NCBI GenBank assembly: GCA_031372065.1
Contig: JANMKN010000054.1
Coordinates: forward strand, 1 to 15,183
DNA length: 15,183 nt
Source of the DNA: Abditibacteriaceae bacterium
Lineage (GTDB): Bacteria > Armatimonadota > Abditibacteriia > Abditibacteriales > Abditibacteriaceae
Direction of reading: 5' to 3'
Below the pieces are notes generated by a model. That model was not told the origin of the DNA. It saw nothing but the letters and a program-made list of their open reading frames with translations, and did not search any database. Positions 4,272-15,183 of this stretch are shown here, piece after piece. The first letter of the stretch is position 1. Each line of letters starts with the position of its first letter. The translations under genes and the position numbers were made by a program.

Positions 4272-4928
4272 TCAAACAATGAATTCGCGTAAGGCGGCTT
4301 CGAGTTCTTGCGGAATCAGCGTGACCAGCACATCGCCTTGCGCAAAAACAGTTTCGGCATTGGGAATCAGAGCCTGACCGTGGCGCAAAACCGAAATAAT
4401 CAGCGTGCCTTTGGGCAGACTTAAATCGCCGAGTTTCGCATCAAGAAGCGGCGAGTTTTCGTCCACCAAAATTTCGATTACTTCGATGTTGCTGCGTTCT
4501 AAGGCGCCCAGCAAAATAACCGGGCCTTTGGACACTTTCTGGCCCAGCAAATTCAACGCGGCAGCCGTGACCGAAACGCGTTCGCGCACGCCAAGTTTGT
4601 CAAACAGTTCTTCGCTTTGCGGATTGTTTATGACCGCGATGATGCGCGTGCGCTTGAAGCAATTTTGCGCCAGTTGGCAAATGACGAGGTTCGCCGGATC
4701 GTCGCCCGTAGCGGCGATAACTAAATCGGCGCGCTCAATGCCGGCGGCTTTAAGCGTCAGCGGGTCGCAGCCGTCGCCTTGCATCATCACGTCGCCTAAA
4801 TCGGAAGCCAACGGACGAAAAACGCCCGCGTCTTTTTCCATCAACAGAACTTCGTAATCGTTGTTAATCAGCGAACGCGTCAGGTGATAGCCGACGCGTC
4901 CACCGCCAATAATAATCGCGTAGGACAT
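4272..4928 (-). CDS. trkA: TrkA-family K+ regulatory subunit (TrkA_N + TrkA_C; CeoC-like)
   Basis: IIIGGGRVG Rossmann motif, GDGCDP..L..AGIERAD..IAATGDD..NL, C-terminal RCK_C (LPKGTLIISVLR.G..LIPNAETVF..GD). Confidence 0.92.
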   Translation of the reverse strand: MSYAIIIGGGRVGYHLTRSLINNDYEVLLMEKDAGVFRPLASDLGDVMMQGDGCDPLTLKAAGIERADLVIAATGDDPANLVICQLAQNCFKRTRIIAVINNPQSEELFDKLGVRERVSVTAAALNLLGQKVSKGPVILLGALERSNIEVIEILVDENSPLLDAKLGDLSLPKGTLIISVLRHGQALIPNAETVFAQGDVLVTLIPQELEAALREFIV

Positions 4929-5392
4929 TACATAGTCTCCAATGAACTGGCGTCACCGTTGATGGAAATTTCGTTGGGCAGGGAGGGAAAGTGCCCTTGA
5001 TTAATGAAATTTTCCAGCAAGCCTTCCACAATGGTCGTGGTGCAAATGGTTTCGATGCCCATATCGTGAAAAATCTCGGCGCGCACCGGATCGTGCAAAC
5101 GCGCCACGGTGCGCTTGACACCGTATTTGTGCTGCAAAAGTTGGGCGATCATCAAATTGCGATTGTCGCCGCTGGTGACGGTGACGCCAATATCAGCGGT
5201 GGCCGAGCCAGCGCTTTCCAGAACATCGTGATCGAGGCCCGAACCTTGATAGGTTTTGCCCGCGAAGTTTGGCCCCAAGCGCAAAAAGGCTTCGCGGGCG
5301 TTGTCCACAATCGAAACTTCATGTGCTTGCGCCGCCAAACGACGCGCCAAGCGCGCTCCGGTGCGGCCACAACCAATAATCAAAACTTTCAT
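4928..5392 (-). CDS. trkA: TrkA-family subunit, TrkA_N domain only (CeoB-like, short)
   Basis: MKVLIIGCGRTG, G.G.D.DVLE.AG, TSGDNRNLMIAQ, ARLHDPVRAEIF..MGI.T. AGGA RBS before ATG 5392. Stop overlaps the next start (TAATG). Confidence 0.9.
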   Translation of the reverse strand: MKVLIIGCGRTGARLARRLAAQAHEVSIVDNAREAFLRLGPNFAGKTYQGSGLDHDVLESAGSATADIGVTVTSGDNRNLMIAQLLQHKYGVKRTVARLHDPVRAEIFHDMGIETICTTTIVEGLLENFINQGHFPSLPNEISINGDASSLETM

Positions 5393-5412
5393 TATTTTCC
5401 CTATGCCCAACA

Positions 5413-7404
5413 TCAATGAGAAGGCGTGGTTTGCGGCTCTGGCGCGAATTCCTGCCCCGGTGCATCCGCCAGCGGTTTCAAGATATACGGCACATTGGTG
5501 ACGACCACGCCTTCACGTTCGTGCAAGCGCAAAGCTAAGAGCAACCCAGCGTGACCGTGCAGCAACTTTGCCCACCATTCGCGCGGCACAAATTCGGGAA
5601 TCACAATGGTAATCAAACTGCGTGGCTCTTCTTTTTGAATTTGAGTGATGTGGTCAACCACCGGGTCAACTAACGAGCGATAAGGCGAGGGCAGCATTTC
5701 CAGCGGCACGCCGCGCGAATATAAAGTCCACTTTTCGCGCAAGCGCTTTTCGCGCGCTTGATCTATCGAAATATGCAGGGCTTGCACGTCCGGCGAAATT
5801 GAGCGGGCATATTGCAAAGCGGCAATCACGCCGCGATGAATGTCGGGCACCAGCACAAAAACAAAGTGACGCCGCCCTTGCATCGGGCGATAATTTTCCA
5901 ACGATAACTGCTGCGCCACGCTGCGATAATGCGCGTTGATTTTGCGTAGTCCCATCACGATGATCGGAATAGCCGCCGCCACCATCCACGCGCCGCCTTT
6001 GAACTTAGTGTAAAGGATGATGCACATCACGATAAACGTTGCCGTCGCGCCGATGGCATTAACAGCGACGTTCAATTTCCAGTTGGGCGGGCGCAATTTG
6101 CGCCAATGCAAAACCATGCCGCTTTGTGACAGCGTGAACGATAAAAACACACCCAACGCGTAAAGCGAAATAATGCGTGTCACCGAACCGCGAAAGATGA
6201 CAATCAAAACCGCCGAGCATAAAGCCAGTGCGATAATGCCGTTGTTGAAGGCTAATCTATCGCCGATATTCGCCATCTGGCGCGGCATATAGCGGTCACG
6301 CGCCAGCACCATGCTCAGGCGCGGAAAATCGGCGTAAGCGGTGTTGGCCGCAAGAACCAAAATCGCTGTCGTGAACATTTGCAACACAAAATAAAACCAC
6401 GCCGCACTGGTGCCATCGAAGGTGCGATGCGCCAAAACCGAAAGCAACGTTTCCGTACTTTCGATGTGGTTATGCTCGACGGCAAATTGCGATGTGCCTT
6501 CGGCCAGTGCAACAATCGGCTGCGAATTCGACATATAAGCCAGCGCTGTAATGCCCAAGAAAAGCGTAACCAGAATGGTCGCCATCCAGCCGAGAGTAAT
6601 GGCCGCGTTGCGCGATTCGGGCGGCTGAAAGGCCGGAACGCCGTCGGAAATTGCTTCGATACCCGTTAAAGCCGTGCAACCCGACGCAAAAGCGCGCAGC
6701 AGCATGAAAAAGCCGAGTTGATGCGTTTGATAAGCCGGGTTGGAAATGGCTTGTTGCTGATGTTGCAGCACGCTATAGTCGCCCAAACCTCCATTTTGCT
6801 GGCGGTAAAAGCCGTAAACCAAAAGCGCGACCATCGAAAGCAAAAAGCCATAAGTCGGAATCGCGAAGACAGTTCCGCTTTCTTTCATGCCGCGCAGATT
6901 GAGCAAGGTAATCAGCGCGATGAACATCAAACACAGGTAAATCACAGACGATGCGTGACCTTGCAAATGCGGAAAGGCCGAAGTGAGCGCCGCCACGCCC
7001 GCCGCCACGGAAACCGCCACGGTCAGAACATAATCAATAAGGAGCGCCGCTGCTGCGACAAGCCCGGTTTGTTGTCCGAAATTTTCCTTTGCCACCAAAT
7101 AGGCGCCGCCGCCTTGCGGATAGGCATAAACCGTTTGGCGATACGACAGCGCCACGATGACCAAAAGCGCGCCGATGCCAAGGCCCACTGGCAACAGCGT
7201 GTGCAGGTTTTGCAGGGTTTCCGGCGCGGTAAAGCTCACCGTCAGCATGAGCGCCAGCAGAATTTCTTCGGTGGCGTAGGCGGTGGACGACAGCGCGTCG
7301 GAAGCGAAAACGGCTAAGGCGATGACTTTGGGCAATCGCTGATGATGTGCCCGGTCCGTGGCGATGGGTTGGCCGACTAACAAGCGTTTCAGTGAAAACG
7401 CCAT
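5413..7404 (-). CDS. kimA: KimA/YdaO-like APC-superfamily (KUP-related) K+ transporter
   Basis: LKRLLVG.P, FASDALSSTAYATEE, SYRQTVYAYPQGGGAY, LLIDYVLTVAVS, ALTGIEAISDG, FPRL...LARD.YMP, cytoplasmic SPYRSL..P and IPEFVP..WW..LLH. AAAGGA RBS before ATG 7404. Confidence 0.9.
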   Translation of the reverse strand: MAFSLKRLLVGQPIATDRAHHQRLPKVIALAVFASDALSSTAYATEEILLALMLTVSFTAPETLQNLHTLLPVGLGIGALLVIVALSYRQTVYAYPQGGGAYLVAKENFGQQTGLVAAAALLIDYVLTVAVSVAAGVAALTSAFPHLQGHASSVIYLCLMFIALITLLNLRGMKESGTVFAIPTYGFLLSMVALLVYGFYRQQNGGLGDYSVLQHQQQAISNPAYQTHQLGFFMLLRAFASGCTALTGIEAISDGVPAFQPPESRNAAITLGWMATILVTLFLGITALAYMSNSQPIVALAEGTSQFAVEHNHIESTETLLSVLAHRTFDGTSAAWFYFVLQMFTTAILVLAANTAYADFPRLSMVLARDRYMPRQMANIGDRLAFNNGIIALALCSAVLIVIFRGSVTRIISLYALGVFLSFTLSQSGMVLHWRKLRPPNWKLNVAVNAIGATATFIVMCIILYTKFKGGAWMVAAAIPIIVMGLRKINAHYRSVAQQLSLENYRPMQGRRHFVFVLVPDIHRGVIAALQYARSISPDVQALHISIDQAREKRLREKWTLYSRGVPLEMLPSPYRSLVDPVVDHITQIQKEEPRSLITIVIPEFVPREWWAKLLHGHAGLLLALRLHEREGVVVTNVPYILKPLADAPGQEFAPEPQTTPSH

Positions 7405-7462
7405 ATTGTTAATTCCTTTGGGGTTGTAGGACAACTCTGCATGATGATTCTCCCACGCGTGA

Positions 7463-7491
7463 ATGTTAGCGCGCCATGATAAAGGCGTCAA
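7463..7491 (-). promoter_or_regulatory. Sigma70-type promoter for the kimA-trkA-trkA-mqn run
   Basis: Minus strand TTGACG (7491-7486), 17-nt spacer, TAACAT (7468-7463), about 58 nt upstream of the kimA ATG. Confidence 0.65.
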
Positions 7492-7499
7492 TAGAGCGA

Positions 7500-7527
7500 T
7501 TACAGGCTTTTTACGGCACGCTATACT
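7500..7527 (+). promoter_or_regulatory. Probable promoter for the DUF433 operon, likely leaderless or near-leaderless transcript
   Basis: TATACT at 7522-7527, 8 nt before ATG 7536. No SD sequence. Weak -35 (TTACAG, 7500-7505). Confidence 0.5.
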
Positions 7528-7535
7528 TTGAAATT

Positions 7536-7796
7536 ATGCAAGAGAGAATTGAATTTTCCGCTATTGTTTGCGACCCGGAAATCTGCCACGGCGCGCCCAC
7601 CTTTCGCGGCACTCGCATTTTCGTGGCCGATGTGCTGGAACAAGTGGCAATGGGCATGGCGTGGGAGTCCATCATTGAACAGTGGCGTGGTGCTATTACG
7701 CGCGATGCCATCGCCGAAGCTGTGCGTCTGGCACGCCGCAGTTTTCTGGATCGCGTCGAAGAAGTTGAACGCGAGCAGGAACAGGCTGTGTCATGA
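7536..7796 (+). CDS. DUF433-family protein (putative antitoxin, VapB45-like)
   Basis: IVCDPEICHGAPTFRGTRIFVADVLEQVA.G...E.I.......IT.DAI.EA matches the DUF433 signature. Start placed at ATG 7536. Confidence 0.9.
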   Translation: MQERIEFSAIVCDPEICHGAPTFRGTRIFVADVLEQVAMGMAWESIIEQWRGAITRDAIAEAVRLARRSFLDRVEEVEREQEQAVS

Positions 7797-8188
7797 TTGT
7801 CCTCGACGAGAATATCGTGGAAGACGAAGCGCAGCTACTGCGTGCGTGGCGTATTTCGTTCCGACAAATAGGGCAGAATATTGGACGCGCCGGTATGAAG
7901 GATGAGGAAATCATACCCTTTTTGCATTCGCTCAAGCGTGTGACTTTTATAACGCGTGATTTGCGATTTTATTCGCGCGAGACGCCACATTCCAATCATT
8001 GCCTGCTTGTTTTAGCCGTTGAGCAGCAGGAAGTGGCCTCTTTTGCGCGCAGATTCCTCAAGCATTCCGATTTCAACACGACGCAAAAACGCATGGGAAC
8101 TATCATTCAAGCGAACCAAAATGGCCTCCGCGTGCGCCGCTTGAATCAACCAAGTGACACGGTTGTGCCTTGGCTCAGATTAGTGTGA
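7793..8188 (+). CDS. DUF5615/VapC45-like PIN-domain protein (putative toxin)
   Basis: MIVLDENI, G..GMKDEEII, FITRD..FY give the acidic PIN-like residues. ATGA overlap with the DUF433 gene. Confidence 0.82.
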   Translation: MIVLDENIVEDEAQLLRAWRISFRQIGQNIGRAGMKDEEIIPFLHSLKRVTFITRDLRFYSRETPHSNHCLLVLAVEQQEVASFARRFLKHSDFNTTQKRMGTIIQANQNGLRVRRLNQPSDTVVPWLRLV

Positions 8189-8198
8189 AAATAGAATA

Positions 8199-9533
8199 AT
8201 GCTTCTCAAACCGGGCGAACATTTACAGGGCAAAAGCACATCTTACGAGATGTCCGAAGTGATCGGGCAGGGCGCTTACGGCACCGTTTTTCGGGCGCGC
8301 GATGCTGAAGGCGCGTTTGTGGTTATCAAGCAGCTTTTCGATACCGGCAGCGGCTCGCCAGAAGATTTCGCGTATCAACGCAAACTATTCTGGCGCGAAG
8401 CCGATATTCTTTCGCAAATCAATCATCCCAAAATCGTGCGCTTTATCGAACGCATCCCCGACGATGTGCCGCACAGTGCGCCGCCCGATGGCGATTTGTT
8501 TTTGGTATTGGAACTGGTGCAAGGCCCCAGTTTGCGCAAGGTTTTCGATGAATACCGCGCCGCCCACAATAATCAGCCGTTTCCCGCCGAAACTGTCGTC
8601 GCTGTTGGCACGGAACTATGCGAAGCCTTAGATTATGTGCATCGAATGCCCGGTCAGATCATTTATCGCGATTTGAAGCCGGAAAATGTGATGTGGGATT
8701 CGCAAAATCAGGTTTGCAAATTAGTGGACTTCGGCACTGCGCGTTTTTCGGCCAAAAGCCGCAAAGTGACGCAGGGACTCGGCACCGAAGGCTACGCGCC
8801 GCCCGAACTGTATTCCACGCGCGCCGATGTGACCTTTAGCGCCGATGTTTTCACCATTGGCGCGCTGCTTTACGAACTTCTCAGCGGCGAAACACCCGAA
8901 CCCAAAATGACGCCGCGCGATTTTCGCGGCTACGATCCGCGCATTCCCGATGGTTTAAAAACCATCGTTTTGACCGCGCTGCAAATGGACGCCGCGCGGC
9001 GCTATCAAACCGCCGCGCAAATGGGCGAGGCACTGAAAAGTCTCGGCATTCAGCGGCCCGCTGCGGCTTTGGAAGAAGTCGGCGGCGGGCGCGCCAAGAA
9101 TCTTCATCCGCTGCTTTCGTGCTTTTGCCCGGCCTGCGGCACCGCGCCACGCACCGAACGCGCCTTGTTTTGTGGCAAATGTCGCGCGCCGATTCATACA
9201 GTCATGCTGCGTGTTCTGTCCAAAAACGCGCCGCCCAGTTTGCTGTATTTGCAAAAAGAAGAATCGCGTTTGGGCCGCACCGATCCCGATTCGGGCGTCT
9301 TTCCCGATATTGATTTATCGCGTTTCGATCAAGGCCGCTTCGTCAGCCGCCACCACGCCAGCATCAAACGCAACGGCACACAATTCTTCATCACGGCGCA
9401 GAAAACCTTAAATCCCACGCGTGTGGACGGCTTTTTAGTCGCTCCCGGCGCGACACTGCCGCTAAATGACGGCTCGCGCGTCGAATTCGCCGATTTGGTT
9501 TGCAATTTCTTGATTCGTCCGGTCACAGGATGA
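8199..9533 (+). CDS. Hanks-type Ser/Thr protein kinase with Zn ribbon and C-terminal FHA domain
   Basis: GQGAYGTV, VVIK, IYRDLKPEN, DFG, GTEGYAPPE, DVFTIG. CPACG...CGKC zinc ribbon. FHA motifs LGR...PDIDL...VSRHHA...NPT. Confidence 0.95.
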   Translation: MLLKPGEHLQGKSTSYEMSEVIGQGAYGTVFRARDAEGAFVVIKQLFDTGSGSPEDFAYQRKLFWREADILSQINHPKIVRFIERIPDDVPHSAPPDGDLFLVLELVQGPSLRKVFDEYRAAHNNQPFPAETVVAVGTELCEALDYVHRMPGQIIYRDLKPENVMWDSQNQVCKLVDFGTARFSAKSRKVTQGLGTEGYAPPELYSTRADVTFSADVFTIGALLYELLSGETPEPKMTPRDFRGYDPRIPDGLKTIVLTALQMDAARRYQTAAQMGEALKSLGIQRPAAALEEVGGGRAKNLHPLLSCFCPACGTAPRTERALFCGKCRAPIHTVMLRVLSKNAPPSLLYLQKEESRLGRTDPDSGVFPDIDLSRFDQGRFVSRHHASIKRNGTQFFITAQKTLNPTRVDGFLVAPGATLPLNDGSRVEFADLVCNFLIRPVTG

Positions 9534-9691
9534 AAATAAGCGGCTTATCCTGCCTTTTTGGGAGGCCAACCGCGTTCTGAGTAGCTTCCTCAATCTTCAA
9601 TACGCACGACCTCCGCTGGACATGGATGATTTGGTCATTCATTGAACAAAAAGAGTTAACTCTTGGGCTTAAAATGATTTCATTCGTTCTG

Positions 9692-9720
9692 TTGAAACCA
9701 TTTTGGGACTGCGTTAAACT
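9692..9720 (+). promoter_or_regulatory. Sigma70-type promoter for the ARM/HEAT-SWIM operon, overlapped by an inverted repeat
   Basis: TTGAAA (9692-9697), 17-nt spacer, TAAACT (9715-9720). RBS TAAGGAG at 9748-9754. Confidence 0.65.
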
Positions 9721-9761
9721 TATACAGTCGTTGCCGAACTGCCCTTTTAAGGAGACCTCTC

Positions 9762-12533
9762 ATGCTTACGCTCGAACAGGTGCGCGCCGTCAACGACGGC
9801 TTGAAAAGCGGCGATTTACACGCTGCCTTGCGCCCTCTCGAAGAAACGATTGACTTGCGGCACGCCGAACTGCCCCGACTTGAAAAAAGTGCCCTCGCGG
9901 CGCTGAAAACCGGCCTGCAAACGCCCGAAAATGCCCAGTTTTGGGCCGAAATGGTGTTTCATCCTAATGTTTCGGTGCGTCGCTTTGTGCGCAAAACAAT
10001 GCTGGGTTTAAAGCGCGAAGCCGCGCCGATTGCCGCGCCGTTACAAAAGCGCCTCGAACAATTTTGGGCGCAGGAAACCGCCTTACCCGATTCCATAAAA
10101 CCACGCGAAGCGGCATTGCGCCGCGAACAACAAGAAATCGTTTCCAGCGCCGTCGAAATCCTCTTGCGCGCCGACCCGGAAATCTTTATGGCGTTTTACG
10201 CCAACGTGCTTGATGCGCAGCCACTTCTCAAAGATCAAACGCAAAAGTGGGAAGGGTGGCAGAAGAAACAAGCGGCGTATTCCAAAGCGGTCAAGGAGAA
10301 AAACGACGCTCTCATTCGCGCCGAGTGGGGCGAGGAATATCTGGATTGGGATAAGCGCAGTCAACTGCCGTGGCGCATTTGGCGCGAACTCGCCGAGCGC
10401 GTGCAAAGCGATGCCGAAGTGCAAAAACTGCTGGCCGATTTGGGTGAAAACCCTTGGCAGCGGGCCTCGCAACAATGGCATCCCGAACTCTTTTTCCAGT
10501 CGGCGATGCATCTGGTTTTTCTGCCTGATGCCACTGGCCCACAAAAGGAAATTGCCGCTGTTTTGCGCCCGTATTTCTGGCGCTGGATTGAGGCCGCGTT
10601 TGATGACAATTCAACCGAAGAGTCGCGAAAACGAGTGGTGCGACGCGCGAATCGGGCGCTTCACAGTTACCAACTATCGGCTCAACTGGGCCGCGACGAA
10701 TTATGGCAACGCGTTCCTGTCCTATTGCAAAAATCGAAGACCTCGCTTCTTTCCGAGATCACAGCAGTCTACAGGGTGAACAATTTCAGCAGCGGTGCGA
10801 CGCACGGCGCGCTGTGGAATCAATTAGCGATGGGATTAAGCCAATCGTGCTACAGACCTTACAATTTAAAAGAAGGCGAATGGTCTGTGCCCGAACAGAT
10901 CACACCGGACTTGTTGCGCGGCCTAAAAATTGACTTTAAAGACAATTATTTGAGTAGCCTGCTCGAAAGCGCGGCCAAACATCTCGAAACAGAGCGCGCC
11001 AAAGAAAACGCGGCGCCCGAAATCATCCGCCCGCCGCTCCCTGTCTTTATGCCCGAAGACGACATCGCACTCCATTTCGACTGGACTGAGTTCGCGCGCG
11101 AAAGAGACGCGCTGGGCATTCAAGATTATCAGGCTTATGTCAAGCAGAAAACAGACGAAATCAGGCGCGAAACCGAAGCGATTGAAAATCCCGACGAGCA
11201 AAGCGCCAAACTCATTGAGCCTTCCAGCCGCAGCGGTCATATTTTGCTCTCACGCCTTCCCTATTGGCGCATTTGGAAAAGGCAAATGGGCGGCACGGCG
11301 CTGAAAAACTTGCTTTGGCCGCGCGTTGGCCCAGCGCTGTGGGCACGCTACGAAGAAAAACTCGAAGCCTATCGCCGCGTGGAAACCGACGATCCCGCGC
11401 CCAAACTCGAAGAAAAACTCACCGCCAGCGAACTGAAAATCTGGAAAACCGAACAGCGTCGCCGCCAGCGCCAATTGATTCAAAATGAGTTAGAAGACAT
11501 CTCGACCTTGTTACGCGAAGTCGAAGGTTTTGAAACCGAAACGCGCCTGCTCAAATTGCTCCATCGTCCCGGCGTCAAAGAAGTCGCCAACGCCAATGCG
11601 ACCACGCTTTTGCAACAATTGGGCAGCATCGGTTTTTACGTTCATCCGGTGGCAAAAGAACAGGGGCGCGACGAAAAATGGCTGCGTGAAAATTTCTTTT
11701 TAGAGCAAAAATGGGCGCCCTTCATTGAGCAATTTGAAGAACAATTGCTGGGTAGCAAACAAACTCATCAATGGCAGCGCGCCAGCCATTTGATGCTCTT
11801 ATCTGTCGCTTATTATCGCCTGAACACGCCCCAAAGCCGCGCGAAATTCCGCGAATTATTGGCGCAAATGGAAAATGTGCCACATGGACTTTCCGGCCCG
11901 GTTGTCGCCCTCGGTGATATCGAAACGTGGCTTTTGCTCGTCGAAAAATTACGTTGGCCTGACCCGAATCTCAAAGAGTTGTGGACGCGCACGCGCCAAA
12001 ATCTCGAAAGTGACGACGCGCGCCGTTTGACCACGCAAGTGTTGCAACTCGCGGCGACAACTTCACGAGAACGCGCCGCGAAATTCATGCTCGAAATGCT
12101 GGACGAAGTGCCCATTGCCGAACTTGAAGCGCACATCGAAACCATTGTTTCGGCACTCGAAAGCCCGCTCATCGCCATCAAACGCTGGGCCTTAAAAACT
12201 TTGCCGCAATTGCTGACAAATTACGATGAAGCCAGCGCCGCGTCACTTGTAGGCGAGATGTTGTGGAACGAAAACGGCGCGCTCGTCAAAGACGCTGCCA
12301 AATTTCTCGGCGCGCAAGGAGGCGAAGCCGACAGTGTCGCGTGGCAGGCGTTACAAGACGCGACTTCGCTGGAAAACCAAGCGATTTTGGAAGCCGTTTT
12401 TCGCGCCCTTGCCAACCTCAAAAAACGCGACAAAGCATTGTCATTGAACGAAAACGCGCAAGAAAAGTTAGCCGCCCTGTGCGAACTTTCGCCAGATCGC
12501 TTTGAGAAATTTCAGAAGAAACTGATCGGTTGA
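9762..12533 (+). CDS. Large alpha-helical hypothetical protein with ARM/HEAT-like repeats
   Basis: 923-aa ORF with strong RBS and codon usage like neighbouring genes. HEAT-like segments HPNVSVRRFVRKTM, ALESPLIAIKRWALKTL, LWNENGALVKDAAKFLG, ENQAILEAVFRALANL. No catalytic motif recognised. Confidence 0.8.
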   Translation: MLTLEQVRAVNDGLKSGDLHAALRPLEETIDLRHAELPRLEKSALAALKTGLQTPENAQFWAEMVFHPNVSVRRFVRKTMLGLKREAAPIAAPLQKRLEQFWAQETALPDSIKPREAALRREQQEIVSSAVEILLRADPEIFMAFYANVLDAQPLLKDQTQKWEGWQKKQAAYSKAVKEKNDALIRAEWGEEYLDWDKRSQLPWRIWRELAERVQSDAEVQKLLADLGENPWQRASQQWHPELFFQSAMHLVFLPDATGPQKEIAAVLRPYFWRWIEAAFDDNSTEESRKRVVRRANRALHSYQLSAQLGRDELWQRVPVLLQKSKTSLLSEITAVYRVNNFSSGATHGALWNQLAMGLSQSCYRPYNLKEGEWSVPEQITPDLLRGLKIDFKDNYLSSLLESAAKHLETERAKENAAPEIIRPPLPVFMPEDDIALHFDWTEFARERDALGIQDYQAYVKQKTDEIRRETEAIENPDEQSAKLIEPSSRSGHILLSRLPYWRIWKRQMGGTALKNLLWPRVGPALWARYEEKLEAYRRVETDDPAPKLEEKLTASELKIWKTEQRRRQRQLIQNELEDISTLLREVEGFETETRLLKLLHRPGVKEVANANATTLLQQLGSIGFYVHPVAKEQGRDEKWLRENFFLEQKWAPFIEQFEEQLLGSKQTHQWQRASHLMLLSVAYYRLNTPQSRAKFRELLAQMENVPHGLSGPVVALGDIETWLLLVEKLRWPDPNLKELWTRTRQNLESDDARRLTTQVLQLAATTSRERAAKFMLEMLDEVPIAELEAHIETIVSALESPLIAIKRWALKTLPQLLTNYDEASAASLVGEMLWNENGALVKDAAKFLGAQGGEADSVAWQALQDATSLENQAILEAVFRALANLKKRDKALSLNENAQEKLAALCELSPDRFEKFQKKLIG

Positions 12534-12618
12534 TAGCACACAAACAAACGCGCATTTACGCGATTTTTTAGAAATAATTCGCGTAAAGTTTCGAATATTT
12601 GCGTAATTTGCGTGCTAT
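12533..12618. repeat. Long imperfect inverted repeat (about 86 nt) filling the intercistronic gap
   Basis: ATAGCAC(a)CAAA (12533-12544) pairs with TTTG(c)GTGCTAT (12607-12618). Inner TTTACGCGA (12555-12563) pairs with TCGCGTAAA (12579-12587). Confidence 0.75.
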
Positions 12619-12632
12619 GAAAGAGGAGATTT

Positions 12633-14114
12633 ATGCAAGTCACACTCGCTTATCGTGCGCCGTCGGTTATCGAAACGGGCACGCAATCGCTGTTCAACTT
12701 CGCGCCGAATGTGAGGCGTGAGCCGGTCTTTTTTCAAGGCGGCTTGCGCGACCCACTGCTTGTGCGCGATGCACTTTTGAATTTGCACGATGTCGTCACA
12801 TCCGATTTCGACACGCGCTTATCTGCCGAAGAGTGGAATCGCATTCTCGATCCAGTTGCCACCGTTGCGCCCGACCAACTGTTCTTCGAGGCCTTTTCGC
12901 AAGACGAAAGTTCGTATGGCCGCGTGGCGCTGCGGCCCGGCGTTTTAGCGGGCGTTGACCGGTGGGAAAGCGGCACGACCAATGTAGATTTCACGCCGCA
13001 ACTCGCCAATGCGATTGGCGCTTTGCGTTCGAGTTCATCGGCGCGTTTTCAAGTTGACCCGGAGGCGTTTTCGGCGCAAGTGGACGGCAAAATGCATCGC
13101 GAAAAGAAAGTAAAATTGCCGCCGTCGTGGTTGCGCGGCTTTTTGAATGTGCAATCGGCGATGACGGGCGAAACCGCCGATTTTGAAATGAATCGCGCCG
13201 ATTTGCGCAATTTGCTGGCGTTTATGAAAACGCACAAAGAAAAATTCGGCCCGCGCGCCTTAGTTTTTAAATTAAAGCCCGGCGAAAAAGTCGAAGTAGT
13301 TTGGGAGCCGTGGAATCACAAACAAACGCTGTCTGGTTCGGTTTATCGCGGCGCCAAAGAGCAGGAAATTCGCTTATTCGGGCGGCGGCGCTTGTTTTTG
13401 CTGAACCGCATTTTGCCGAAAATGCAGCGCCTGCGCGTTTTCTTGTGTGGCAGCGGCTTGCCGTCGTTTTGGATCGCCGATTTGGGGCGCGACGAAGTGA
13501 GTTTTCAGCTTGCCATTTCCGGTTGGACAACGCGGCCTTTTGCGGCTTCCAATTTGTTTTTGAACGAATCGCAAGAAAAATTGGACGCCGAAACTTTGCA
13601 TCGCGCGCGTCTGGCCTTGCGCGCCGATGAAGCGATTTCGAGCGACGATTTGGCACGTAAACTCAACATCGCGCCCGCGCAAAGCAAGCGACTTTTAGCG
13701 CTCTTGTGCGCGCAAGGCCAAGCCATGTTCGACCTCGAAACGCGCCGTTATCGCAAGCGCGAAGTGTTGGATGTGCCGCTTGATGACTTGAAACTGGAAA
13801 TGGATTCGTCGCGTTTAGAAGCGGCGCGGCAATTGGCAAAAAGTGGCGCTGTAAAAATCGAAAGCAACGAAGAGGGCTTGCTGCAAACCACCATGCGCGG
13901 CGAAGTAAAAAGCAACGATAATTCTTATCCGGTTGCTGTGACTTTGGATAGCGACGGCAAAATCGTGGACGGCGACTGCGAATGCACTTGGTTTCACTAT
14001 AACGCCCTGCGCGGCGGCCCCTGCAAGCACATTTTGGCCTTGCGCGAAGCAGTCACGAACGCGGGCAGCAACGTCGAAAGCAAGCAAAGCGAATGGTGGG
14101 ACGTATTGGCGTAG
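12633..14114 (+). CDS. Winged-helix + SWIM zinc-finger protein
   Basis: C-terminal CECx12CKH (13977-14030). wHTH-like ISSDDLARKLNI....KRLLALLCAQGQAMFDL..RRYR.RE. N-terminal motifs LHDVV.SD, LDPVATV.PD.LFFEAFSQDESSYGR, GTTNVDF, LPPSWLRGFL.VQSAM. GAGGAG RBS at 12623-12628. Confidence 0.9.
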   Translation: MQVTLAYRAPSVIETGTQSLFNFAPNVRREPVFFQGGLRDPLLVRDALLNLHDVVTSDFDTRLSAEEWNRILDPVATVAPDQLFFEAFSQDESSYGRVALRPGVLAGVDRWESGTTNVDFTPQLANAIGALRSSSSARFQVDPEAFSAQVDGKMHREKKVKLPPSWLRGFLNVQSAMTGETADFEMNRADLRNLLAFMKTHKEKFGPRALVFKLKPGEKVEVVWEPWNHKQTLSGSVYRGAKEQEIRLFGRRRLFLLNRILPKMQRLRVFLCGSGLPSFWIADLGRDEVSFQLAISGWTTRPFAASNLFLNESQEKLDAETLHRARLALRADEAISSDDLARKLNIAPAQSKRLLALLCAQGQAMFDLETRRYRKREVLDVPLDDLKLEMDSSRLEAARQLAKSGAVKIESNEEGLLQTTMRGEVKSNDNSYPVAVTLDSDGKIVDGDCECTWFHYNALRGGPCKHILALREAVTNAGSNVESKQSEWWDVLA

Positions 14115-14158
14115 TGGGGAACGTGCGCGAAGTAGGAAACAATATCTGAGCCAGCACG

Positions 14159-14194
14159 AAAAAGCGCGCTTCTCGCCTGAGAAACGCGCTTTTT
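14159..14194. terminator. Bidirectional Rho-independent terminator between convergent genes
   Basis: AAAAAGCGCG-c-TTCTC / GCCT loop / GAGAA-a-CGCGCTTTTT, with T-runs on both strands. Confidence 0.8.
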
Positions 14195-14284
14195 GTTGAA
14201 TCAAAACACGAAATGAATCGCTAAAATCAGACCCTTTGCCAACATAGCATAGTCTCTTGTTAGGCGGCTGTTATCACGTTTGAG

Positions 14285-14806
14285 TCACGATGTTCTGCTC
14301 TTAACCAACCATTCCTTATCGTTCCACCAAGCCTTAAACTCGCCCACTGGCTTAATCTGTATGAGCGGGTCGTCTGTTTGAACTAACGCTATGAAACGCA
14401 AACCGAAGAGAAGGTTTTGATGGTAATTATGTGCGATGATGTCCAAAATTCTATGAGCGCAGTAAGGGAATTTGCTATGAAATGTATCGAAATGCTTGAA
14501 GACGATTACAAGGCCGCTCTCGTTTGGCACTTCAACGTCGCTCAAGTAATCGTTAAAACCATCCACGTTGGGATTTAGGTCGTAATCCTGAAGCACACCC
14601 AAACGTGAGGAGAAGTCATTCAAGATGGTCTGCTCATCTTTATAATCCTGACAGTCGAACTCGTGAACCGTGTATCCGTGCTGTTTGAGATACTGAACGG
14701 TCTCTTCCAAAATCTGTAACTTGTGAAACAGCGTGACCGGGCCATAGCGCAGCAGTTGCCAAATTTGCCAATCGTCGCGGAGTGTTAATTTGTTGAATGC
14801 AGCCAT
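14285..14806 (-). CDS. Barstar-family (RNase inhibitor-like) immunity protein
   Basis: L..HGY.VHEFDC..Y......NDFS..LG...Y..NVDGFNDYLSD (cf. barstar G.NLDAL.D.L), GLVIVF.HFD.F, AH.ILDIIA, LLFG.R.IALVQTDDP. Confidence 0.75.
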   Translation of the reverse strand: MAAFNKLTLRDDWQIWQLLRYGPVTLFHKLQILEETVQYLKQHGYTVHEFDCQDYKDEQTILNDFSSRLGVLQDYDLNPNVDGFNDYLSDVEVPNESGLVIVFKHFDTFHSKFPYCAHRILDIIAHNYHQNLLFGLRFIALVQTDDPLIQIKPVGEFKAWWNDKEWLVKSRTS

Positions 14807-14950
14807 GCTTTTATTTTATTGCTTCCAGCCAAGCTGCGCGCAAGCAACACAACAATGTTATTCACCCGCACTTTTGCGGTTTAAACCACGAAATATTCTC
14901 TCAAAAGATAGGAAAAAACCTGTAGGAAACTGCAAATCGTCCTAAGACTT

Positions 14951-15011
14951 ATTTATCCTTCACTCCGCTTGTTCACAGGCATTCGTTGAATAAGCGGAGG
15001 GAGGGCTAAAT
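14951..15011. repeat. Long stem-loop (19-bp core) downstream of the right-edge gene
   Basis: CCTTCACTCCGCTTGTTCA (14957-14975) pairs with TGAATAAGCGGAGGGAGGG (14987-15005), with two G-T wobbles and one mismatch. Confidence 0.7.
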
Positions 15012-15021
15012 TTTCCGCTCC

Positions 15022-15183
15022 TTAAGGCGTGTTTGGTTTGGCCTTGCGCGGCTTGCGTTCGCTGGTGCGAGTGCCTCCGGCCTGCGAGTATTCGGGAGAA
15101 TCGGGGCCAAAAGCGCCGCGAATGCCCGAACGAGCGCGCGTTACCTTGACGTTTAAGAGTTTTTTGCGGTCGCGGCGCGTGCG
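15022..15183 (-). CDS. 3' end of a conserved hypothetical protein (not in the ORF track; start outside the window)
   Basis: Open frame RTRRDRKKLLNVKVTRARSGIRGAFGPDSPEYSQAGGTRTSERKPRKAKPNTP*. The G..FGPDS.EY..AGGTR.SERK tail resembles a widespread uncharacterised small-protein family, as I recall it. Confidence 0.75.
   Translation of the reverse strand, partial: RTRRDRKKLLNVKVTRARSGIRGAFGPDSPEYSQAGGTRTSERKPRKAKPNTP

Follow-up and report, generated by a model that had tools for sequence, protein, structure and literature searches.

A compact two-gene operon on a contig of an Abditibacteriaceae bacterium (JANMKN010000054.1, assembly GCA_031372065.1; the whole contig of 15,183 bases was analysed and is called the window) associates a homologue of the SWIM protein of type XIII retrons with a large helical-repeat protein of an orphan family. 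We propose, with a probability of roughly 0.55, that the large protein (P0001, 923 aa) and the small SWIM protein (P0002, 493 aa), whose association in a complex is predicted, likely work on nucleic acid with neither a reverse transcriptase (RT) nor multicopy single-stranded DNA (msDNA). The window is contig C356 of genome G000, an assembly of 6.1 Mb in 410 contigs that is 93.9% complete. A first-pass annotation of the same DNA had described an RT-less operon with a promoter-like site, two ribosome-binding sites (RBSs) and a terminator hairpin; the open reading frames (ORFs) and signals are as described, and the window is indeed free of RT, no Y[AVILMC]DD motif being present in any ORF, the RT hidden Markov model (HMM) being blank and the 13 neighbouring ORFs matching other Pfam families, none of them RT.

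The kinship of P0002 with the SWIM protein of type XIII retrons, which had been proposed from its motifs, is confirmed by its match to the PADLOC model SWIM_XIII (E 2e-144, 480 bits), and the motifs that had been quoted (LDPVATVAPDQLFFEAFSQDESSY, GTTNVD, LPPSWLRGF and the CxCx12CxH finger) are all found in the protein. The alignment covers positions 1-62 and 100-504 of the model, the missing stretch 62-100 corresponding to an insertion of the retron-linked proteins. More than 2000 relatives of P0002 were found across many phyla, and a sequence search of the PDB with P0002 gives nothing at E up to 1. In the AlphaFold 2 (AF2) model (predicted local distance difference test, pLDDT, 84.8; predicted template modelling score, pTM, 0.84), a two-domain clamp fold resembling PCNA is predicted to precede a winged helix and a SWIM zinc finger. 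With VIA-align, the modelled residues 31-300 are superposed on PCNA with a Z of 20.3 and a root-mean-square deviation of 3.0 over 233 of 245 residues, and on the Rad9/Rad1/Hus1 (9-1-1) clamp with a Z of 18.7, while Foldseek aligns the region with PCNA-type structures at E 6e-10 (target-normalised TM-score, TMt, 0.72-0.77). The top 29 structural matches listed for these residues are all clamps (PCNA, 9-1-1, beta) or viral processivity factors.

In an alignment of 53 diverse SWIM sequences, the Cys and His columns of the finger are invariant or nearly so, as are five acidic positions of the clamp region, D73, E86 and D119 being invariant and D81 and E157 near-invariant; together they form the pattern Dx7Dx4Ex30-32Dx37E. 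In the portion of Mestre et al. 2020 (PMC7736814) used here, this DEDE motif of the cluster 114_1 proteins is read as a hint of a transposase origin. Since the fold predicted for residues 31-300 is PCNA-like, the motif sits on a clamp fold, and no transposase stands among the structural matches listed, a result still compatible with that family. The term effector, which had been applied to the unit, has no support: the searches revealed no enzyme domain, and for the DEDE region a PCNA-like fold is predicted. The winged helix and the SWIM finger would bind DNA or RNA, and the five conserved acids would mark a metal or ligand site.

P0001 belongs to no Pfam, PADLOC or NCBIfam family. Among 5.8 billion clusters, 32 relatives were found, and those that are named are all hypothetical proteins of Abditibacteriota or unclassified bacteria; this extent of the family rests on word-indexed searches and on our own HMM applied to the fetched loci. 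The AF2 model (pLDDT 87) is entirely helical and matches generic solenoids only (RRP12, SF3b, CAND1, importins), with TM-scores no higher than 0.22. Weak HEAT_2 matches are present in 4 of the 32 family members, the ESM Atlas returns generic HEAT clusters with a DUF7825 lead of 0.89 that lies under the tool's own threshold, and a PDB sequence search with the family profile gives nothing at E up to 1. The large protein had been thought to resemble the HEAT/ARM partners of type XIII retrons or those of DUF6493 type, and this resemblance did not survive comparison: by hhalign, the P0001 family is related to the retron XIII HEAT-ARM/WGR partners with a probability of 0.2% and to the DUF6493-type partners with a probability of 4.8% (E 0.008), PADLOC returns nothing at E up to 1 for P0001 and three relatives, and none of the 32 members matches DUF6493, DUF7824, DUF7825 or WGR. 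The canonical retron partner encoded by G000 itself matches both PADLOC models, HEAT-ARM_XIII and WGR_XIII (Table 1). That P0001 lacks WGR had been noted before and holds, neither WGR nor the PADLOC model WGR_XIII being matched. As judged from sequence, P0001 is not detectably related to the retron XIII or DUF6493 partners, the alpha-solenoid class alone being common to them, and profile-profile comparison reveals no kinship among the three partner families.

To place the pair, 151 genomes of the phylum were scanned with SWIM_XIII and RVT_1, and 27 genome stretches and 80 metagenome loci were fetched. Three architectures were distinguished: the canonical type XIII retron (A-type), the pair of the window (B-type) and SWIM with a DUF6493-DUF7824-DUF7825 protein (C-type). 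In the A-type, the order is non-coding RNA (ncRNA), HEAT-ARM/WGR_XIII protein (925-1326 aa), SWIM_XIII and RT_XIII (E 1.6e-149), the SWIM protein carrying mostly a BRCT tail in this phylum; RVT_1 lies just 3' of the full-length SWIM_XIII gene in 23 of 25 places of the phylum sample, the other two being cut by contig ends, and the order RT, large gene, SWIM is also found in other phyla. The B-type consists of a P0001-family gene and, after it, the gene of a SWIM protein that measures 462-532 aa in complete copies. The co-occurrence of the two genes, expected by the first-pass annotation, is found in all 16 B-type places (the window, L001-L006, L028-L035 and L047), the P0001-family gene being directly upstream on the same strand in each. 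No RT is present in any of the 16 within the available flanks, which extend to at least 5.5 kb upstream and 3 kb downstream in 6 of them. The C-type, in which the SWIM gene precedes a gene for a DUF6493-DUF7824-DUF7825 protein of about 1000 aa without RT, bears out the earlier statement that RT-less pairs of SWIM and DUF6493 exist; the unit is also annotated by RefSeq on the plasmid NZ_CP116354.1 of Streptomyces sp. HUAS 31. This insertion-free C-type lineage resides in genomes without any RVT_1 match (G021, 98% complete; G043, 93%; G098, 69%).

Trees of 45 and 99 SWIM proteins, rooted at the midpoint, separate these architectures. The C clade is supported at 100% in the Shimodaira-Hasegawa-like approximate likelihood ratio test (SH-aLRT) and the B clade at 97-100%, L047 being loosely attached to it on a long branch, while the retron clade (77 rows, 97% SH-aLRT) contains every RT-linked copy, both local and from other phyla. 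The B clade is sister to the whole retron-linked clade and is not nested in the local one. Being separate, it is no recent derivative of the retrons of the Abditibacteria, so that the idea of a retron that had lost its RT is not borne out.

The insertion mentioned above, of about 75-90 residues, is located right after the first clamp-fold helix in the retron-linked SWIM proteins and is missing from the B- and C-type proteins. An HMM of this segment served to score its presence at 107 places, after removal of L008, a duplicate of L006, and of a 104-aa fragment of L086; flanks were taken as sufficient with at least 5.5 kb upstream and 3 kb downstream. Where the insertion is present, 55 places have an RT, one with sufficient flanks has none (L042) and 25 have flanks that are too short; where it is absent, one place has an RT (L081, on a long branch), 12 with sufficient flanks have none and 13 have flanks that are too short. 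These counts describe a pattern and are no statistic, the relatives not being independent. At L042, the insertion-bearing SWIM gene lacks an RT over 8 kb on its upstream and 3.8 kb on its downstream side, and at L081 the RT-linked SWIM gene, for which the insertion HMM is blank, lies on a very long branch. Taken from sequence and gene order, the data suggest that the B-type SWIM proteins are a lineage of their own that likely works without RT and template RNA.

The association of the two proteins was modelled with full-length P0002 and residues 435-923 of P0001, from our own alignments. The interface score ipSAE (interaction prediction score from aligned errors) reaches 0.75 in three runs, while the best of 3 controls scores 0.00; the mark of 0.75 is reached by 116 of 157 solved complexes versus 2 of 215 mismatched pairs, a calibration that is only rough with our own alignments. 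The runs agree in at least 92% of contacts, with a partner pLDDT of at least 83. On P0001, the predicted contacts (701-704, 765-769, 797-802, 832-837 and 866-872) are loops and helix ends of the HEAT array, and they comprise 6 residues invariant in the P0001 family (E800, E832, L834, W835, L870 and N872) among 22 interface residues, compared with 44 of 923 overall. On P0002, the predicted contacts are made by the clamp-fold helices 41-56, 122-129, 188-200 and 251-257, and the acidic DEDE residues lie outside the interface with the modelled half of P0001. The C-terminal HEAT array of P0001 would sit on these four helices, and the clamp-fold domain would be a docked module and not a ring around DNA. 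We know of no solved complex of like kind.

The genome was searched for a retron RT, as the first-pass annotation had proposed, and G000 turned out not to be RT-free. Its contig C384 (6123 bases; locus L007) is a canonical type XIII retron operon, with the genes of a HEAT-ARM/WGR_XIII protein and of a SWIM_XIII-BRCT protein followed by the 5' end of an RT_XIII-type gene (Table 1). Profile searches of the whole of G000 with RVT_1 and RT_XIII are both blank, and the RT stub of C384 is matched in tblastn by the N-termini of the RTs of all 10 relatives (best E 3e-8), so that the blank searches reflect the assembly. In G003, of the same genus, the retron copy is on a contig of 2059 bases; together with the end of C384, this indicates that the retron locus is prone to poor assembly in the genus. 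Of the 7 checkable genomes with a B-type pair, 6 contain RT_XIII, namely G000 (the stub), G084 and G125 (2 each), G153, G154 and G151 (with stops), and none was found in the fragmented assembly of the seventh, G152. Shared residence says little, because canonical retrons are in most genomes of the family: a full-length SWIM_XIII gene beside an RT, or cut by a contig end, is found in 11 of 14 sampled genomes, including G000. Help in trans from the C384 retron for the B-type pair is unlikely.

The ncRNA of the Armatimonadota retrons, of 200 nt, is present in one or two copies upstream of the large gene and consists of a conserved 5' part, a long hairpin of fixed length and free sequence with CGCTGAG at its centre, and a 3' end of the form CTACAGTG...GCCGGTC. 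A covariance model (R1) built from 10 ncRNA copies of these retrons finds the left-out controls L021 and L019 with 66.6 and 60.5 bits (E 3e-16 and 1e-14). On the window and the other 15 B-type places, the best E of R1 is 0.2, in a search that a very different ncRNA would escape; on 8 C-type places it is 0.39 and on the whole of G000 0.3, the ncRNA of the resident retron being missing from the G000 assembly. Rfam gives no match in the window.

A palindrome is shared by close B-type loci and some of the retrons. The element YGRTTTCA-N10-TGAAAYSR is upstream of the large gene in all 8 close B-type loci with upstream DNA, in surrounding sequence that is unalignable, and was not seen in the distant B-like loci L031-L035. 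The form GRTTTCA-N10-TGAAAY is also found 66 bp upstream of the first gene of the G000 retron on C384 and ahead of the ncRNAs of G033, and 4 of 11 retron operons have an excess of TTTCAY half-sites in their upstream DNA (5.6 per kb, versus 8.3 for the B-type and 1.2 for the background). In the window, the palindrome lies at the -35 hexamer and would be an operator; its sharing suggests a common control, perhaps by the winged-helix proteins themselves. Further good copies of TGATTTCA-N10/11-TGAAAYCR in G000 are located at C369:12269, upstream of a 194-aa unknown gene and then an AAA_24 gene, at C168:46969, upstream of a 299-aa unknown gene adjoining a DEAD-box helicase, and at C292:25559, before a 430-aa unknown gene. 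An SOS-type box was considered and rejected, the other good sites of G000 lying near genes without Pfam match, AAA_24 and the DEAD helicase, and no repair regulon having emerged.

Full-length P0001 is found in 3 of the 14 sampled genomes of the family and was not found in G003 (97% complete), which belongs to the same genus. The neighbourhoods of the B-type pairs differ from locus to locus, the location being different in nearly every genome. In G033, remnants with stop codons, P0001-like and SWIM_XIII-like, are found at different places (C1:1024224-1024373 and C1:3683725-3684003) and suggest a loss of such pairs in that genome. The identities to the window for SWIM and partner are 92/74, 86/63, 68/40 and 50/29%, the large subunit evolving about twice as fast as the small one. 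In L001, the closest relative, two tandem partner genes (4399-7191 and 7188-10001) precede the SWIM gene, of which the first product is 73-74% identical to P0001 and the second, next to the SWIM gene, only 26%. A second diverged P0001-family gene (972 aa, E 2e-120 with our own HMM) without a SWIM gene beside it is found at L115:5548-8466 in G084, the complete genome of the cultured strain IAD-21, in which the pair itself is at L004. Neither reading frame is interrupted in the window, and the same holds for nearly all of the 16 places; L005 looks frameshifted or fused: at L005:309-4545, the large gene runs into the start of the SWIM gene in a 1103-aa ORF that matches both, by frameshift or assembly error. 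No relative of P0002 is found in 50,697 phage records, and its plasmid matches sit on large non-mobilizable replicons.

Because close relatives carry the pair only sporadically and its large subunit diverges at about double the rate of the small one, its role would be surveillance in genetic conflict or DNA damage and not core metabolism; the patchiness, the remnants in G033, the changing locations, the duplication in L001 and the fast large subunit fit conflict better than housekeeping. Several points weigh against the proposal of a complex acting on nucleic acid without RT or msDNA. The model of the complex covers half of P0001 (residues 435-923) and was made with our own alignments, and the interface helices of P0002 are those that we take, by their order in the fold only, to line the DNA channel in PCNA. 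The B-type pair shares its genome with RT_XIII in 6 of 7 cases and the retron operons of G000 and G033 carry the B-type palindrome, so that a link between pair and retron is possible. The midpoint root does not fix the order of events in the trees, neither protein has a recognisable enzyme domain or a visible output, and the window has only 1069 bases downstream of the pair. The loci are no defence islands, the neighbours being transporters, sugar enzymes and regulators. No experiment is published for this pair or, in the literature found, for type XIII retrons.

Several other hypotheses could be put forward. A bolder form of the proposal, which we hold as a tentative idea with less than an even chance, is that the pair forms an autonomous, RT-independent heterodimer for nucleic-acid surveillance and is the older core that gave rise to type XIII retrons when an RT, an msr-msd RNA and a helical insertion of about 85 residues in the clamp-fold protein were added; this insertion would be the piece reading msDNA or holding the RT, and the PCNA fold would be a plug held by the HEAT array and not a ring on DNA. 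Alternatively, the pair could be a satellite of the type XIII retron in the same genome and, using msDNA that the RT of C384 makes in trans, provide that system with another sensor or output arm. The canonical operon with its RT stub in the same genome, the presence of RT_XIII in 6 of the 7 genomes with the pair and the palindrome 66 bp before the G000 retron and ahead of the G033 ncRNAs, with half-sites enriched at 4 of 11 retron operons, speak for such a satellite. We consider it unlikely, however, because each retron already has SWIM and solenoid genes of its own, P0002 is without the insertion that all but one of the RT-linked copies carry, co-residence is hardly informative when canonical retrons are in 11 of 14 sampled genomes of the family, the insertion-free sister lineage resides in RT-free genomes, and none of the 16 B-type places has an ncRNA copy nearby.

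A chromosomal housekeeping or regulatory factor without a role against phages, such as a DNA-repair accessory or a winged-helix transcription regulator, is another explanation to which we give a low probability. PCNA-like, winged-helix and SWIM folds, with BRCT and WGR in the retron paralogues, are a set typical of DNA-damage proteins; this set, flanking genes of ordinary metabolism and transport, the absence of matches in the phage records and the large non-mobilizable plasmids are in agreement with it. So are the vertical inheritance noted and the possible domestication suggested for type XIII in the portion of Mestre et al. 2020 (PMC7736814) used here. A housekeeping gene pair would nevertheless be expected in more than 3 of the 14 genomes that were sampled from the family and also in the same-genus genome, where none was found, and would hardly leave broken remnants in G033, vary in location in nearly every genome, or show a duplicated, strongly diverged partner gene in L001 and fast evolution. 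That the pair is a decayed, non-functional leftover of a type XIII retron after loss of RT and ncRNA, as the lack of both and the shorter SWIM protein without BRCT tail might suggest, is very improbable: the frames are intact in the window and nearly everywhere else (except L005), the columns that look catalytic and those of the zinc ligands do not vary, the clade is old, SWIM identities falling to 48% with the partner still adjacent, and it is not nested in the local retron clade.

The coordinates of the operon, of the resident retron and of the ncRNA copies are given in Table 1. In the region 9400-14400, 3 sigma-70-like sites were found versus 2.4 expected, so that the promoter-like site is a consensus match and no proof of a promoter. 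The spacer core (12576-12621) and the terminator hairpin are short dispersed repeats, each present on about 15 or more other contigs of G000. The spacer was considered as a hidden ncRNA and rejected, being unconserved in other B-type loci and missing in L001; its RNA fold has a z-score of only -2.6 and its core is repeated on at least 15 other contigs. In L003, the spacer between the two genes (9790-9980) is a tandem array of TAGATAT-like units. Upstream of the operon, the window encodes ubiquinone-type biosynthesis genes, TrkA, a permease, a DUF433/DUF5615 (PIN-like) pair that resembles a toxin-antitoxin unit (7476-8188) and a Ser/Thr kinase with a C-terminal FHA domain (8199-9533); downstream, a solitary Barstar-like gene lies on the opposite strand (14285-14806) with no barnase beside it. 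None of the DUF433/DUF5615 pair, the FHA kinase and the Barstar-like gene recurs beside the gene pair in other genomes. The final 333 bases of the window (14851-15183) match, in inverted orientation, the first 332 of contig C55 at 90% identity, so that C356 probably ends in a repeat.

Table 1. Positions of the operon features in the window, of the retron genes on contig C384 and of the retron ncRNA copies.
Feature	Sequence	Position	Strand	Description
Inverted repeat TGATTTCA-N10-TGAAACCA	window	9675-9700	.	overlaps the -35 hexamer; candidate operator
Promoter-like site TTGAAA-17-TAAACT	window	9692-9720	+	sigma-70-like, 9/12 consensus matches
RBS AAGGAG of the P0001 gene	window	9749-9754	+	from sequence; few bases 5' of ATG
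P0001 gene	window	9762-12533	+	923 aa, ATG start; all-helical solenoid, orphan family
C-terminal HEAT/ARM array (aa 718-923)	window	11913-12530	+	VIA-align Z 10-12; predicted docking site for P0002
Intergenic spacer	window	12534-12632	+	contains a short dispersed repeat and the RBS GAGGAG
RBS GAGGAG of the P0002 gene	window	12623-12628	+	few bases 5' of ATG, inside the intergenic spacer
P0002 gene	window	12633-14114	+	493 aa, ATG start; clamp-fold, winged-helix and SWIM parts
PCNA-like two-domain clamp fold (aa 31-300)	window	12723-13532	+	predicted; structure comparison
Winged-helix domain (aa 316-382)	window	13578-13778	+	VIA-align Z about 10 to Z-alpha and IclR-type
SWIM zinc finger (aa 436-470; C449, C451, C464, H466)	window	13938-14042	+	Pfam PF04434, E 1e-6
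Terminator-like hairpin, then T run	window	14159-14194	+	16-nt arms, 94% complementary
HEAT-ARM/WGR_XIII protein	C384	68-3775		1235 aa; HEAT-ARM_XIII 1.7e-19, WGR_XIII 3.9e-18
SWIM_XIII-BRCT protein	C384	3887-5830		647 aa; SWIM_XIII 7.6e-172
RT start	C384	about 5860-6123		last 264 bases, about 88 codons; runs off the contig
ncRNA copy	L017	5268-5468
ncRNA copy	L018	5054-5254
ncRNA copy	L023	4423-4623
ncRNA copy	L025	4415-4613
ncRNA copy	L026	10095-10295
ncRNA copy	L027	10581-10780
Tandem ncRNA copies	L020	10892-11092 and 11184-11384
Tandem ncRNA copies	L022	10451-10650 and 10758-10957

No mechanism is given for type XIII retrons in the literature searched, and the RT-less sister lineage is a natural minimal version that separates the function of the protein pair from the contribution of RT and msDNA, the insertion of about 85 residues being a likely retron-specific adaptor. 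Should the pair prove to protect against phages, this would be a two-protein defence with no recognisable enzyme; should it not, type XIII modules as domesticated DNA-handling factors would be supported. The predicted interface between P0001 and P0002 offers point mutants that are directly testable.

The portion of Mestre et al. 2020 (PMC7736814) used here describes the type XIII accessory genes as the wH-SWIM (winged helix and SWIM) cluster 114_1 with a HEAT/ARM or WGR-HEAT/ARM protein, only genes near RTs having been examined, and names Mx162 and Mx65, the first retrons ever found, as members of this type. PADLOC contains only the retron-linked form of the SWIM_XIII system, and no publication was found that deals with RT-less relatives, DUF6493 or a clamp fold of these proteins. 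The RT-less SWIM lineage is new relative to the literature searched, whereas the type XIII SWIM protein family itself is already known.

Compared with type XIII retrons, P0002 is homologous over its whole length, with the same DEDE columns, winged helix and CxCx12CxH finger, the gene order is alike (large helical protein, then SWIM protein) and in either system the large subunit changes at about twice the rate of the small one. In contrast, the pair of the window has no RT in its operon (clade-10 RT_XIII in the retrons) and no msr-msd RNA, P0002 lacks the insertion of about 85 residues and the BRCT tail, P0001 is without WGR and not detectably related to the retron partners, and the B-type SWIM proteins form a separate clade. 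The pairs of SWIM and DUF6493 are likewise RT-less two-gene units, in which a SWIM_XIII-like protein without the insertion is combined with a helical protein of about 1000 aa, but there the SWIM gene comes first, whereas the partner is upstream in the window type; their partner families (DUF6493, DUF7824, DUF7825) are matched by no P0001-family member, and their SWIM proteins belong to a different clade from B. With the PCNA, 9-1-1 and beta clamps, residues 31-300 of P0002 share the predicted two-domain fold without sequence similarity (7-14% identity); in P0002, however, the clamp domain continues into a winged helix and a SWIM finger, and its helical face is predicted to hold a HEAT array and not DNA.

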